From assembly GCA_039024555.1 (NCBI GenBank), contig JBCCQQ010000004.1:96001-160000 (forward strand): DNA of 64,000 nt, written 5' to 3'. Shown here piece after piece: positions 22,999 through 28,328 of the stretch (within the stretch, counting starts at the first letter, position 1; every line of letters starts with the position of its first letter). Source of the DNA: Cyanobacteria bacterium P01_D01_bin.156. GTDB taxonomy: Bacteria; Cyanobacteriota; Cyanobacteriia; Phormidesmidales; Phormidesmidaceae. A program made the position numbers and the translations under genes. Below the pieces are notes generated by a model. It searched no databases, was not told the DNA's origin, and saw nothing but the letters and a program-made list of their open reading frames with translations.

Positions 22999-24327
22999 GT
23001 GAAAGGTTGGTTAAAGAGACGATCTTTAGTTGGGATTGTTGGTGCAACTGCGATCGCAATTCTAGGGATTGGTGCAGTTAGCCTACGGCGTGACAACCAA
23101 TACGACGTAGACGTACTGACGGTGCCTGTAGAGACCACTGAGGTCACTGTACGTATCAACGCTAGCGGTGAAGTAGAAGCCTTTCGTACCGTCAATTTGA
23201 GTCCTAAAAATGCCGGCATCTTAGATAAGTTACTAGTAGAACAGGGAGATTCCGTAGTCCAGGAGCAAATCATCGCTCGTATGGACATCGACGACTTAAA
23301 TGCTCAGCTACGCCAAAATCAAGCCAGCCTTGCTGAAGCCGAAGCCCAACTAAAGGATCTGTTGCAGGGTACCGATCGACCACAATTAGCCCAAGCAGAG
23401 GCCAATGTGGCTGCGGTACAGGCGCAGCAAGTGGAAGCTGAGTCCAGGTTACGACTGGCAGAAGGAGATTTGGCTCGAGATCGCGATCTCTACAGTCAGG
23501 GGGCCATTTCCGAACGAGAGTTAGACAATAGCCAAAATGCATTGGACAGTGCCCTAGCCAATGTTCGTCAGCTTGAGTCACGGGTAAATGAGGCTCAAGA
23601 GCGTCTGCAGGACCTAGCAGATGACCCGGACCCTGAAGATGTGGCCCAGTCCCGTGCCCGTGTGGAACGGTCACGAGGTCAGGTTGAAGCCGTCCAAACC
23701 CGTATTGAAAACACCATCATTCGTGCCCCTTTTAGCGGAGTCGTCACTCAGAAATTTGCCACCGAAGGGGCATTTGTTACCCCCACCACATCGGCCTCTG
23801 AAGCGGCATCAGCCACATCTAGCGCTATTGTTGCGATCGCTAATGGCTTAGAAATTGTTGCCGAAGTTCCCGAAGCCGATCTAGGCCAGATTCAAGTGGG
23901 ACAAAGTGTTGAAATTACCTCCACCGCTTTCCCTAACCAAGTCTTTGACGGTACAGTTCGTTTGATTGCCCCAGAAGCCATCGAACGTCAGAACGTTACA
24001 ATCTTCCAGGTGAGAATACAACTACAAACCGGATTAGAACAACTGCGCTCTAACATGAACGTGGATGTCGCTTTTTTGGGCAATCGTCTCAGTGATGCGC
24101 TAGTAATTCCTGCTGTTGCAGTCGTCACCCAGGGAGGAGAAACCGGAGTGCTCGTTCCCGATGAGAATAATCGAAATATTCGATTCCGGCCTGTTACCTT
24201 AGGCCCTCAGGTCGGGAATCAAATTCAGATTCTGGATGGAGTAACTCAAGGAGATCGCGTGTTTGTAGATTTGCCACCAGGCCAGACCCTAGATAATCTA
24301 CGATTCAACCGAGATGAGCAAAGCTAG
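22999..24327 (+). CDS. Efflux periplasmic adaptor (membrane fusion protein, MacA/HlyD-like)
   Basis: N-terminal TM, lipoyl half motifs (LVEQGDSV; IRAPFSGVV), long coiled coil, VPEADLGQIQVGQ. Confidence 0.9.
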   Translation: MKGWLKRRSLVGIVGATAIAILGIGAVSLRRDNQYDVDVLTVPVETTEVTVRINASGEVEAFRTVNLSPKNAGILDKLLVEQGDSVVQEQIIARMDIDDLNAQLRQNQASLAEAEAQLKDLLQGTDRPQLAQAEANVAAVQAQQVEAESRLRLAEGDLARDRDLYSQGAISERELDNSQNALDSALANVRQLESRVNEAQERLQDLADDPDPEDVAQSRARVERSRGQVEAVQTRIENTIIRAPFSGVVTQKFATEGAFVTPTTSASEAASATSSAIVAIANGLEIVAEVPEADLGQIQVGQSVEITSTAFPNQVFDGTVRLIAPEAIERQNVTIFQVRIQLQTGLEQLRSNMNVDVAFLGNRLSDALVIPAVAVVTQGGETGVLVPDENNRNIRFRPVTLGPQVGNQIQILDGVTQGDRVFVDLPPGQTLDNLRFNRDEQS

Positions 24328-24592: not shown

Positions 24593-24715
24593 TTAGCAGT
24601 AGTCCGCACTGCAGCTCTGAGTCTGTCTGAGCTTATTCCACACGGACAACACCAGGCCCAGAAAAAGTGCTGTGCGCTGTGTTCTCATTGCTTTAATAGA
24701 AGATAGAACAATCAT
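24593..24715 (-). CDS. Unannotated 40-aa peptide ending in CSADYC
   Basis: MIVLSSIKAMRTQRTALFLGLVLSVWNKLRQTQSCSADYC; strong RBS TAGGAGG about 8 nt before ATG. Confidence 0.6.
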   Translation of the reverse strand: MIVLSSIKAMRTQRTALFLGLVLSVWNKLRQTQSCSADYC

Positions 24716-24762: not shown

Positions 24763-24906
24763 TTACTTTTTGCTATCGCTAGCACTTTTAAGCTCAATCA
24801 CCAGTTTGGGACTATTATCTTTCTTCTCTTTTTTCTTGGGTTTCGAAGATGTCTCAGAGACTAAGAAGAAGATAAAACAAACTACAAAGAAAGGGAAGAA
24901 GGGCAT
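24763..24906 (-). CDS. Unannotated 47-aa small protein, hydrophobic N-terminus plus Lys-rich tail
   Basis: MPFFPFFVVCFIFFLVSETSSKPKKKEKKDNSPKLVIELKSASDSKK; AGGA RBS about 8 nt upstream. Confidence 0.65.
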   Translation of the reverse strand: MPFFPFFVVCFIFFLVSETSSKPKKKEKKDNSPKLVIELKSASDSKK

Positions 24907-25284
24907 AGCACAGATCCTGAAAGGTGAGAGATTGTTAGAAAAAACATAGCCCTTGACTGAAGGAATCTATCAACTGGCGCTCTGAACAAATCAGCTAGCC
25001 GCGTAATAAAGTCAGCCAAATAACTGATGTTTTATCCAACAATCACAGAATATCGAAGCTGCCCTATCAATACAATTTGCTTTTTTACAGACCTCTGTTA
25101 GCTTTTCTGTAGCATCCTTATAACTTCTCGCTAAATACCCTTTGTAGTTTTGTTTAATACTGCAAGTACTTTAATGACAAAATGCCCTGATCCTTTCAAA
25201 ATCACAATGTCCGTGTGATCTAAATCATTTTGCAATAGCCCCAAATTACGAATCGAGGACTCCAAATGATGGGACCATACTACG

Positions 25285-25332
25285 AAGCCACGAGCGCAGT
25301 AAGTTCATATGAACTTACTGCGCTCGTGGCTT
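25285..25332. repeat. 48-bp perfect palindrome without loop; probable terminator of the peptide gene
   Basis: AAGCCACGAGCGCAGTAAGTTCAT|ATGAACTTACTGCGCTCGTGGCTT. Confidence 0.8.
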
Positions 25333-25355: not shown

Positions 25356-25556
25356 TTAACGACTAGAACTACCCGTTCTACCAGTTGTCCGATTTGGATC
25401 CGGTGGTGGGGGTTCAAAGCCAGCAACAGCAGAGCTACCCATCACAGAAATAATCGGCATCGAAATTAAAACAGCTATGACTAAACGGAGCCATAGTTGC
25501 CTTGTCACTTTTAATGTAGACGTTTTAATCACCTCCTTTATTAACATAAGTGACAC
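25356..25556 (-). CDS. Small secreted peptide precursor (signal peptide plus Pro-rich, Gly/Ser/Arg-ending tail)
   Basis: Basic n-region, hydrophobic h-region, AVA cleavage motif, predicted mature GFEPPPPDPNRTTGRTGSSSR; near-perfect SD AAGGAGGTGAT at 25528-25538; true start uncertain. Confidence 0.75.
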   Translation of the reverse strand: MSLMLIKEVIKTSTLKVTRQLWLRLVIAVLISMPIISVMGSSAVAGFEPPPPDPNRTTGRTGSSSR

Positions 25557-25677: not shown

Positions 25678-27639
25678 TTACGTCGATAAGGGAAACGTCA
25701 ACTGACAGAAAAATCCTTTTGGCTTGTTTGGTCGCCGTACAAACGTCCCCTTCGTTAGCTTTTCAATTTCTTGACCAATGCGTGTACCTTCACCGCTGCC
25801 AGCTTCATGCATATCCACTCCAGGGCCATTGTCAGCCACCGTTATCTCATAGTGTTCATCTTTGTGTTTTCCAGTCACCACTAGCTGTGTAGCTCCAACG
25901 GCGTGTTTGCCAACGTTCCCTAGGGCTTCCTCCACAAATCGACATAGCTTACGCTTAACTTCAACGTTTAAGATGTCTGATTCGAGCGGATCAAAAGAAA
26001 TAATTGTGAATTTAAGGCTTGAAAAGCCCAACAAGGGCCTTGATAGCATGGCATCGTACACCTCCTGAAAAAGTTCGTGTAGAGGAATATCTAAGTCAAA
26101 CTTGGTGCCCGCATAGCTAACATCTAGGCTATTTTTTCGAGCCACTACATCCTCCTTGATCGAATCCCCAATGTATCGAATCTCTCGATTGAGATCTTCT
26201 AGCCCTAGGCAGATATCCGGTATATTAATCGTTTCGTCACGGGTGCGTCTAAGCAAGTTGGCCAGAGTTTGAAGCGGCCCATTGTGAATGGAGTCAAATA
26301 CGTTTTCAATCGTTTTTTGCCGTGCAAAGGCTAACTTTTCAGAAACGTGGCGTTCCTTTTCTAGAGCCAGATTACGCTGTTCAATTAGCTTGGCCCAGCG
26401 GCGTTCGTTTTGAGCATAGTTGATATAGATCAAACCATTGGCCGTTATAGAGACCAATGTTACGGCCAGCGGTAACCATAGGCCAACTTGCAACAGTAAA
26501 ATATAGCTAACAACAATGCTTGAACCAGCAATTAGTGATAATCGGACAAAACCGCTAATCACCCCCTGAGAAAAGCGACTGGCGATAATACTGAGAATTG
26601 AAAAAGAGATTAAGAATATTAGTTGAGCAATTCCACTAGTCCAAAGTAACGGTTGTTGCTTTTCGACTGCCTTAATAATTTGACTGATCGTGTAGGCTTG
26701 AATTTCTGCGCCACTGGCCAGCTGCTTATTATTTACAACACGATTAAAAACGGTTAGCGGTATTTGGTTTCCTTGAAGCGGATCTACCAAACTAACAATG
26801 ACAATTTTATCTTTAATTCGCTCGTCTTCTTGTCTTTGGGACGTTAGTAAATCTGTTCTACCGATTAGGTTAAAAGGTTTAACTTGCCCCCGATAGTTAA
26901 TCAAAGCCTGAATATCGGATTCATCATTGTTGACATATCCGTAGGCAGATTTAATCCTAGGAATCTCAACCGGTCCGAATCGCATTGCGAGCTCATCCTG
27001 AATACCATTCTCTAGCTCAAGATCTTGATTGCTGAAGCGCTCACTTTTGAAATAGCTTTGAATAATTTGGATAGCAAAAGACGTCTCAAATTCATCATCA
27101 GTGTTATAAGAACCTAACAAAGCTCGACGAACTGTACCATCACGATCAAGCGACAGGTCGTTAAACCCAACTTGTTGATTGAGTTGAGTTTGAGAGAGTT
27201 TTGGCAACGGTTCTACGGGATTAGAAAGAATCCGCTCTACCAAAATTAAATTAGAATTCCTTCTAATAAGCGGCAACAGAGTTTTATCTAGGTCCCCTGT
27301 AATTCGATGAGATAAAATATCGATACCGACAACAGCCGGCTCGTTTTCGAAGATATTCTCTAGAATCTCAGTCAACTCCGCTGCATCAATGGTATCGATG
27401 GTCTCATCTGTATCGTTAGTCTCCTCAGTAGATAGAGAATCAATTCCAACAATTGTGATCGGCTTATCACCAGTTTGAAACGATAGCTGAGTCGCCAGCA
27501 ACCGGTCCAAGGCCATGAGTTCAACAACCTGGAATGCCCCGAGAGAACGTGCACCTATCACAGAAGCCACGATACCCAGACCCCAAAGACCAGTTTTGAG
27601 TCGCTCTAAAGACTTCTCCCAACGGCTTTGGTCTTCCAT
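25678..27639 (-). CDS. CHASE2-domain sensor histidine kinase
   Basis: EL.ALD, ITIVGID, PAVVGIDI, VGFND...D.DG.VRR, G.EIQA (CHASE2); three TM segments; H-box IHNGPLQ, N-box EALGNVGKHA, DNGPG, GEGT. Confidence 0.9.
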   Translation of the reverse strand: MEDQSRWEKSLERLKTGLWGLGIVASVIGARSLGAFQVVELMALDRLLATQLSFQTGDKPITIVGIDSLSTEETNDTDETIDTIDAAELTEILENIFENEPAVVGIDILSHRITGDLDKTLLPLIRRNSNLILVERILSNPVEPLPKLSQTQLNQQVGFNDLSLDRDGTVRRALLGSYNTDDEFETSFAIQIIQSYFKSERFSNQDLELENGIQDELAMRFGPVEIPRIKSAYGYVNNDESDIQALINYRGQVKPFNLIGRTDLLTSQRQEDERIKDKIVIVSLVDPLQGNQIPLTVFNRVVNNKQLASGAEIQAYTISQIIKAVEKQQPLLWTSGIAQLIFLISFSILSIIASRFSQGVISGFVRLSLIAGSSIVVSYILLLQVGLWLPLAVTLVSITANGLIYINYAQNERRWAKLIEQRNLALEKERHVSEKLAFARQKTIENVFDSIHNGPLQTLANLLRRTRDETINIPDICLGLEDLNREIRYIGDSIKEDVVARKNSLDVSYAGTKFDLDIPLHELFQEVYDAMLSRPLLGFSSLKFTIISFDPLESDILNVEVKRKLCRFVEEALGNVGKHAVGATQLVVTGKHKDEHYEITVADNGPGVDMHEAGSGEGTRIGQEIEKLTKGTFVRRPNKPKGFFCQLTFPLST

Positions 27640-28328
27640 TAGTCCAATAGACCCCGCTCGCGGGCACGGATTTCAGTCAGACTGCGTAGATTTTTGCCTT
27701 CCTTTTTGTCTAGTTCAGGATCTATTTCTAGAACATCGTAGAGTTTGTTCCAGTAGTGGCGAATAGTACTAGGCTGCACATTCAATTCTTGAGCAATAGC
27801 CTTGTCCTGCAATCCTTCGTAAAATGCCAGGGTCAGGACTTGAAGCCATTCAGGTTTGAGTTCAATTCCTGCCTGAAGAGCTTTAATACCTCGGGTATGG
27901 CTAAAGCCTTTGAGGGCACCATCGATACGCTGAAAAATATCCTGGCTCGACATGCTCTTGTCAACAATCGTAAATCCGCCCTGGTGGCTATCAATTTCTG
28001 AACGCACGCGCACCAGTGCCTTAATGTAGGTGCTTTGAATGGCAATATTTTGCTCAGGGTAATTTTTCATTACCTGTCTGAGCAACTCAATGCCTGTTTC
28101 CACTTTGGCATCTTCTTGATATGCCTCAGGTATGGACAGGTCTAAGATTGCTAAATCAAGGTTGTAAGTTGCTAAATGTTCTAACGCTTCCTGAGCAGTC
28201 TTTGCAGTTACAAGATCGTAGGTGGGATAATGCTGTCGCAGGATGTCGATGGTACCGCTCAGTACAACTTGATGATCATCGACAATTAGAATTTTGCCGG
28301 TAGGTGCTTCACTAGATGAGGGGCCCAT
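27639..28328 (-). CDS. NarL-like DNA-binding response regulator
   Basis: ILIVDDH, phosphoacceptor in LAILDL, conserved Lys in VDKS; HTH GLQDKAIAQELNVQPSTIRHYW; stop overlaps kinase start (TAATG). Confidence 0.92.
   Translation of the reverse strand: MGPSSSEAPTGKILIVDDHQVVLSGTIDILRQHYPTYDLVTAKTAQEALEHLATYNLDLAILDLSIPEAYQEDAKVETGIELLRQVMKNYPEQNIAIQSTYIKALVRVRSEIDSHQGGFTIVDKSMSSQDIFQRIDGALKGFSHTRGIKALQAGIELKPEWLQVLTLAFYEGLQDKAIAQELNVQPSTIRHYWNKLYDVLEIDPELDKKEGKNLRSLTEIRARERGLLD

Follow-up and report, generated by a model that had tools for sequence, protein, structure and literature searches.

A conserved leader-only peptide gene behind a cyanobacterial CHASE2 histidine kinase, with the peptide as a predicted ligand of that kinase

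Locus organization and features

The window, i.e. the whole stretch of 64,000 nucleotides analysed here, carries on its minus strand, in this order, the genes for a response regulator, a CHASE2 histidine kinase and a small peptide, followed by a hairpin. The features are listed below.

27639..28328, minus strand: NarL/LuxR-type response regulator, 229 aa, overlapping the kinase start (PF00072, 2.2e-11)
25678..27639, minus strand: CHASE2-HATPase histidine kinase, 653 aa, predicted receptor (PF05226, 1e-34; PF02518, 2.4e-6)
26632..27528, minus strand: extracytoplasmic CHASE2 domain, kinase residues 38-336, folded and docked here
25356..25556, minus strand: longer reading of the peptide ORF from GTG 25556, 66 aa
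25529..25537, minus strand: Shine-Dalgarno sequence AGGAGGTGA, 5 nt before the ACG
25356..25523, minus strand: peptide precursor gene, 55 aa, probable ACG start
25422..25523, minus strand: Sec-type signal peptide, residues 1-34, ending in AVA, predicted from hydropathy and the AxA motif
25359..25421, minus strand: predicted mature peptide of 21 residues, homologue of the DUF928 leader, predicted to dock on CHASE2
25285..25332, minus strand: hairpin, homologous to an intrinsic-terminator-like stem with U-tract in relatives

In the regulator a GerE match (0.0077) lies below the cut-off. The kinase has the H-box IHNGPLQ, and H452 is invariant in 10/10. A convergent HlyD-family adaptor gene is located at 22999-24327. 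Neither a DUF928 nor a CHAT match was found within the window. An earlier sequence-only reading of this DNA had seen no protein-like continuation beyond the hairpin.

Peptide precursor and start codon

The ORF at 25356-25556 (-) runs from a hydrophobic stretch through AVA and the 21-mer GFEPPPPDPNRTTGRTGSSSR to a TAA stop, as the sequence-only reading had described it. The signal region has a hydropathy peak of 3.1 and a hydrophobic segment of about 20 residues, and AxA stands directly before x-[FY] in 18/18 same-genus peptides and in 28/32 peptides of the wider clade; Sec export and cleavage after AVA by signal peptidase I are inferred from these features. Mature leader-only peptides are mostly 20-22 residues long. 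The peptide does end at an Arg, a trait that is common without being universal, the final Arg being present in 14/18 same-genus peptides and in 21/48 overall, and several peptides of the wider set (n=48) carry tails past the motif. Because peptides with tails or without the Arg exist, a free C-terminal Arg cannot be a universal requirement. Variant peptides with YxPP-x-x-PP-R-R and a tail of 15-20 residues, often ending in a hydrophobic motif, occur at L019, L077, L078, L082, L085, L089, L095, L100 and L127.

The peptide gave zero family matches in Pfam, and a search of the ESM Atlas gave no usable lead (best score 0.82). All candidates from a word-based protein search (5/5) were close peptides of the same type, and 5/8 candidates of a further look-up were present in the protein collection; none of them is named. 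Additional stand-alone peptide copies were not found in this genome. A rule formulated post hoc (a hydrophobic stretch followed by [FY]xP..P or ..D at 15-45 residues from the stop) retrieved 55 of the 112,572 ORFs of the genome, and in its strict form this gene alone.

Translation probably starts at the ACG at 25523 and yields a precursor of 55 aa; the GTG at 25556, taken as the start at first, was not borne out. The Shine-Dalgarno sequence AGGAGGTGA is present in 18/18 same-genus loci, and 5 nt downstream of it (3 nt in L018) stands ACG in 15, ATG in 2 and ATA in 1 of them, while ACG makes up 14/91 of the other Thr codons of these peptide genes. One of seven metagenome loci, L140, has an ATG 4 nt behind AGGAGGTGA. 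Genes of other genera usually have an ATG 34-35 codons before the F/Y, and the ACG at 25523 lies 35 codons before it. A start at GTG 25556 is opposed by an in-frame stop at most 7 codons upstream of the ACG position in 10/17 relatives and by the occurrence of an upstream ATG/TTG in just 4/17; the GTG inside the Shine-Dalgarno sequence was rejected since L018 and L140 have it in another frame. The spacing to AGGAGGTGA, the codon counts, the upstream stops and the codon distance to F/Y all point to a probable ACG start. ACG is a weak initiation codon in bacteria. The sequence TGTCAC at 25550-25555 (-), which overlaps GTG 25556, shows DNA-level conservation ahead of the Shine-Dalgarno sequence in most relatives, with CCTGA further upstream, and is a possible promoter or regulator site.

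Conservation and selection

The orthologous kinase (53-71% identical) is found in 17 of 21 same-genus genomes, and 17/17 of these loci keep a short gene with its stop in place, instead of the full-length DUF928 gene that would have spoken against the sequence-only reading. The remaining 4 genomes (completeness 70, 75, 89 and 99%), all without the orthologous kinase, gave no peptide match, and presence of the peptide tracks that of the kinase in 21/21 genomes. Purifying selection, which the sequence-only reading had proposed as a check, is indicated by a dN/dS of about 0.3: pooled over pairs of 18 copies the values are 0.30 for the whole gene, 0.31 for the signal and 0.28 for the mature part, rough figures given the relatedness of the pairs and the gaps in the alignment of the mature part. 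The alternative frames contain 3-7 stops each across the 18 copies, TAA, TAG and TGA are all used as the stop at one place, and indels are in-frame. Over a clade of 31 loci, divergence is greater in the signal part (0.71) than in the mature part (0.64), and the short gene is kept in 31/31 readable loci with kinase identity down to about 30%. Judged by this sequence record the gene is real and no decaying fragment, and leader-only peptides form a conserved, apparently undescribed family.

Hairpin and downstream region

The strong hairpin expected about 24 nt after the stop is there, as a perfect 48-bp palindrome with a gap of 23 nt behind the peptide stop. Its stability is -50 kcal/mol (z -10.3), and 0/200 shuffles are as stable. 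In relatives the homologous stem-loop, with a U-tract, is conserved, and 10/15 of its pairs show changes on both sides over 17 sequences. Zero-loop perfection was dismissed as a special trait, the genome having 45 such palindromes with arms of at least 14 bp, and a mobile repeat was dismissed because the hairpin is single-copy in the genome. The 45 perfect zero-loop palindromes have arms of 14-26 bp and many are terminator-like; template switching or an assembly effect are possible readings.

Behind the terminator, a conserved non-coding block at 24990-25235 (-) contains a near-palindromic ATGATTTAAATCAC-type motif and may be a promoter or regulator site; in the window it has about 110 nt extra, resembling a local duplication of the terminator region. 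It is followed by an ORF of 47 aa at 24763-24906 (-), conserved in same-genus relatives, with a hydrophobic N-terminus, a Lys-rich tail and a Pfam hint below the cut-off only (PF25184, E 0.0027), and by an ORF of 40 aa at 24593-24715 (-) with an AGGAG motif, conserved in relatives and without a Pfam match.

Relation to DUF928

DUF928 proteins of this genome and of the loci collected consist of a signal peptide, a leader [FY]xPP...[GS][ST]R and a continuation starting with GGC; the leader motif is a feature observed here and lies outside the Pfam model PF06051. The leader is 18-22 residues long in 35/36. That the peptide is homologous to this leader had been proposed from general features of the family, and it holds by profile comparison (hhalign P 90.9, E 1.1e-6, 28 columns) as well as by a blind search that returned full DUF928. 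The mature part alone gave a profile score of 25.8 and its reversed form 9.3; 0/60 column shuffles reached the score. The blind search covered 1.84 billion proteins and yielded 41 hits, mostly of 47-75 aa, among them the full DUF928 protein P0041 (Pfam 3.7e-29) and proteins of 56-186 aa in which this leader is combined with remnants that vary. Inspection led to three hits (P0011, P0043 and P0036) being set aside as unrelated repeat proteins, P0036 being judged from its 8 short stretches only. An HMM of 33 DUF928 leaders is not diagnostic: it ranked the peptide 132nd among 112,572 ORFs with 5.3 bits. Compared with DUF928 proteins, the peptide has the leader and the CHASE2 neighbour, and the folded domain of about 184 residues is absent.

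For 115 distinct kinase loci the next 1.3-1.5 kb were scored for a partner gene, by a rule written after the data had been seen and with a background of about 0.005 per locus. The gene after the kinase is a short peptide at 45 loci, DUF928 at 39, both at 2 and neither at 23, with 6 unreadable. Of the 4 distant CHASE2 loci L027-L030, 3 were excluded as belonging to a different class, and so was the DUF928-bearing L028. When 151 whole genomes were searched with a profile built from 38 peptides, 48 matches turned up in 43 of them, a count that is partly circular as many matches are training sequences. Within 1 kb behind a kinase of the same class lie 45/48 of these matches, 7 of them in ORFs of 175-280 aa; of the other three, two are at contig ends and one is without kinase context. 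Tandem pairs of peptide genes occur at some loci. DUF928 is present in 101/301 genomes searched across the phylum, and the genome studied here has 12 DUF928 genes (13 matches), 18 CHASE2 matches (17 besides this kinase) and 43 CHAT matches.

A tree of CHASE2 domains, with 11 further CHASE2 domains of this genome as the root, places a 32-locus clade (31 short, 1 unreadable; support 1.00) at the first branch, a position that is weakly supported (0.82, 0.88); other short loci are nested among DUF928 kinases (0.96). A midpoint-rooted tree of full-length kinases groups all DUF928-only kinases and conflicts with the rooted tree on the order of events. A further lineage with 11 matches comprises 7 long ORFs (6 confirmed as DUF928) and 4 leader-only genes without domain remnant, one of which encodes a peptide that stops exactly at the Arg. 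The gene directly after these 4 genes is one that we take, from its motif, to be RNase Z-like. Two of the 4 have no local kinase; the kinase lies elsewhere in the genome without a partner gene, and these separated kinases are 76-78% identical to the adjacent type. One separated peptide (L157) has lost the Arg motif and looks decayed. These patterns suggest that leader-only forms probably arose more than once. As distant kinases carry full DUF928 in the same slot, the short gene is probably a product of truncation that was then kept.

A modelled DUF928 protein (L072:4301-4969) shows an Ig-like plus helical fold in which leader residues 1-10 are ordered (pLDDT 86). Elsewhere in this genome (C8:125908-126930), between a CHAT gene and a CHASE2 gene, a DUF928 gene carries five tandem leader copies, each ending in GGASR, which suggests a multi-copy precursor. 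A conserved small hydrophobic ORF of about 80 aa lies between kinase and DUF928 at L022, L025, L033, L034, L043 and L047.

CHAT genes were counted at 67 of 78 titled loci, those having at least 3 kb downstream. A CHAT gene lies beside 13/19 DUF928 loci, 0/32 short loci, 0/2 with both and 0/14 with neither, a contrast that is overstated since the loci are related, the flanks span just 3-3.5 kb and 43 CHAT matches lie elsewhere in the genome. In this genome the CHAT genes that neighbour DUF928 mostly encode a hydrophobic N-terminus together with His and Cys motifs. From this co-occurrence, an exported TPR-CHAT protease probably frees or controls the leader in the longer DUF928 proteins.

Predicted docking on CHASE2

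The CHASE2 model is confident (pLDDT 86.4). No CHASE2 relative was found in the PDB by sequence or fold, with no Foldseek match at E 0.001 and a best Z of 5.3; a weak fold match of this kind does not establish a new fold. The complex was predicted from CHASE2 38-336 and the last 30 precursor residues, with the membrane segment outside the model. It scored 0.66, 0.68 and 0.66, and the best of 3 controls scored 0.02; the controls were unrelated proteins rather than a scrambled version of the peptide, a CHASE2 paralogue or DUF928, and the model therefore bears on binding, not on cognate specificity. The docking mark is reached by 116/157 solved and 2/215 mismatched pairs, counts that are rough with the alignments used. 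The runs have at least 81% of contacts in common, with a partner pLDDT of at least 62. Confident contacts come from the last 22 precursor residues and none from the preceding 8 (26-33). In the model F36-P39 contacts L209, E210, N211, M219, F184, G176 and I243, and T50-S53 contacts CHASE2 160-164, S53 also touching D107, G310, I313 and Q314.

N211 is kept in 45/45 short-type kinases. The interface as a whole is not enriched in conservation over the rest of the CHASE2 domain (0.54 vs 0.50, p 0.25), and the partnerless kinases (23/115) keep the interface residues as well as others do. A mirror-tree comparison of peptides and sensors gave a partial Mantel r of 0.53-0.57; co-variation beyond shared ancestry was not separable, the periplasmic and cytoplasmic trees being largely congruent. 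Identical peptides pair with sensors that are 85-88% alike. The idea of a CHASE2 ligand, already voiced in the sequence-only reading, gains support from the complex prediction, and we consider it likely that the peptide is the ligand of the adjacent kinase.

Proposed mechanism and alternatives

Regulator, CHASE2 kinase and peptide probably form a cassette of three genes for peptide sensing. A precursor of 55 aa, translated from the weak ACG start, would be exported through the Sec system, with signal peptidase I cleaving it after AVA, and the released 21-residue peptide is predicted to bind the extracytoplasmic CHASE2 domain of the neighbouring kinase, with its F-x-P-P end on the hydrophobic patch L209-N211/M219/F184 and its T-G-S-S end along strand 160-164, near D107/G310/Q314. 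By analogy with two-component biology, the bound peptide would alter phosphorylation of H452 and of the NarL-type regulator. In long relatives this motif forms the N-terminal leader of DUF928 and would probably be freed or controlled by the exported TPR-CHAT protease; the present lineage would have retained the leader alone, with no CHAT gene beside it. Between an activating signal shared between cells and a tonic or feedback inhibitor, we lean slightly towards the former. A broader reading, in which the Pro-rich leader is the general direct ligand of cyanobacterial CHASE2 sensors, either cut from DUF928 by exported TPR-CHAT proteases or made ready-to-use, and serves as a lineage-specific signal diffusing between cells or filaments, is put forward tentatively, as a possibility that we rate clearly below even.

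Small membrane proteins such as MgrB and SafA act on kinases from the membrane, and an uncleaved precursor might regulate this kinase in the same way, with the Pro-rich end as a tethered tail. The length of the hydrophobic segment would allow it, as would the constraint on that segment, which within the genus equals that on the mature part. We nevertheless hold this to be unlikely, given the nearly constant AxA directly before x-[FY], the greater divergence of the signal part across the 31-locus clade, the fact that the same segment heads a soluble-looking domain in DUF928, and the absence of confident contacts from residues 26-33 (in a model without the membrane segment). Hardly more probable, and if anything slightly less so, is another target: the peptide could be a decoy or competitor for other DUF928/CHAT/CHASE2 modules, of which this genome has many components, or could bind DUF928 in trans. 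A positive complex prediction can also be obtained with near relatives of a true partner, and the ordered DUF928 leader could mean that it docks on its own domain; against this, nearly all profile matches (45/48) lie directly behind a kinase of the same class, and within the genus presence of the peptide follows the orthologous kinase without exception.

It appears improbable that the two-component system has the peptide as its output rather than its input, the peptide then serving some unrelated function (as an antimicrobial, a RiPP precursor or a surface peptide). Its downstream position, with two more conserved small ORFs behind it, would suit a regulated target, yet no modifying enzyme or dedicated exporter is a conserved neighbour among the loci listed, and the peptide fills the DUF928 slot and passes docking on CHASE2 in the model. 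Least probable of all, and for the present lineage largely refuted, is a functionless relic of a truncated DUF928 gene; the 56-186 aa proteins with varying remnants, the decayed-looking L157 and the weak ACG start would fit a relic, but they stand against retention in every readable locus of the clade despite the distance between the kinases, purifying selection, indels that keep the frame, the use of three different stop codons at a single position, and conservation of both Shine-Dalgarno sequence and terminator. The preferred reading thus remains that of a ligand for the adjacent kinase.

CHASE2 is a widespread extracytoplasmic sensor, and the peptide is a directly testable candidate for its signal: the peptide can be synthesized cheaply, its putative receptor is named and the contact residues are predicted. 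A natural gene cut down to 21 residues, conserved and homologous to the DUF928 leader, points to the motif itself as the active unit of DUF928, as the sequence-only reading had surmised. Leader-only peptides are the best single clue found here to the ligands of cyanobacterial CHASE2 kinases. They also represent a small-gene family, with a conserved probable ACG start, that is prone to be missed or mis-started by annotation. If the leader were a general CHASE2 ligand, this would be two-component peptide signalling in a diderm phototroph.

Comparison with known systems

With DUF928 (PF06051) the peptide shares the signal peptide, the [FY]xPP...[GS][ST]R leader, its length and the slot behind the same kinase class. 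It differs in having no folded domain, in stopping at the Arg where DUF928 continues with GGC, and in lacking an adjacent CHAT gene. PMC5587647, the one paper in the literature searched that mentions DUF928, reports a single CHASE2-DUF928 neighbourhood, and CHASE2 is termed a small-molecule receptor in PMC8195603. No direct CHASE2 ligand is named in the literature searched, nor is the present system described there, whether in connection with CHASE2 or with peptide quorum sensing in filamentous cyanobacteria. Nothing was found on leader-only peptides; bioRxiv supplements and most subscription papers lay outside the search, and a prior description is possible.

PatX of filamentous cyanobacteria is a short Sec-exported precursor that is processed outside the cytosol and yields HRGTGR, which inhibits HetR (PMC12756182). 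The short precursor with a (here predicted) Sec-type signal is common to both, but RG[ST]GR occurs in 0/48 of the peptides studied here, which bears out the earlier remark that the motif is lacking and rules out the peptide as a PatX. A separate PatX-like candidate in this genome (C88:5447-5698) is an ORF of about 80 aa that carries a signal sequence and four copies of RGSGR.

In Sinorhizobium meliloti, NsrA and the CHASE2 cyclases CyaD1, CyaD2 and CyaK respond to a plant protein signal via an outer-membrane barrel with cAMP as output; the portion of that paper available names no direct CHASE2 ligand (PMC13001267). CHASE2 signalling there, too, answers a signal of protein nature, but the signal is plant-derived, sensed by the barrel and relayed by cAMP, whereas here it would be a peptide from the adjacent gene acting on a two-component kinase. 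MtxA of magnetotactic bacteria is described as an exported protein encoded before a CHASE2 adenylate cyclase, its deletion giving no phenotype under the standard conditions tested (PMC4439547, PDB 4z29). Among fold matches of the DUF928 model, the C-terminal part of MtxA (4z29) ranks first (Z 8.8, rmsd 4.5, 152 aligned). MtxA has 313 aa and a different N-terminal region, and is a comparison for DUF928 rather than for the leader-only peptide.

The Agr, ComQXPA and ComCDE systems of Gram-positive bacteria encode an exported small peptide together with a membrane kinase and a regulator, and the peptide varies between relatives. Peptide, kinase and regulator genes stand together here as well, and the peptide again differs among relatives. 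Unlike in those cassettes, the host is diderm, the sensor is CHASE2, the signal is predicted to be of the Sec type and the peptide probably derives from the leader of a larger protein; a dedicated modifying enzyme or peptidase-bearing exporter is not among the neighbours scanned. We propose, by analogy, that the cassette works like the Gram-positive peptide-kinase systems, which does not imply membership in them.
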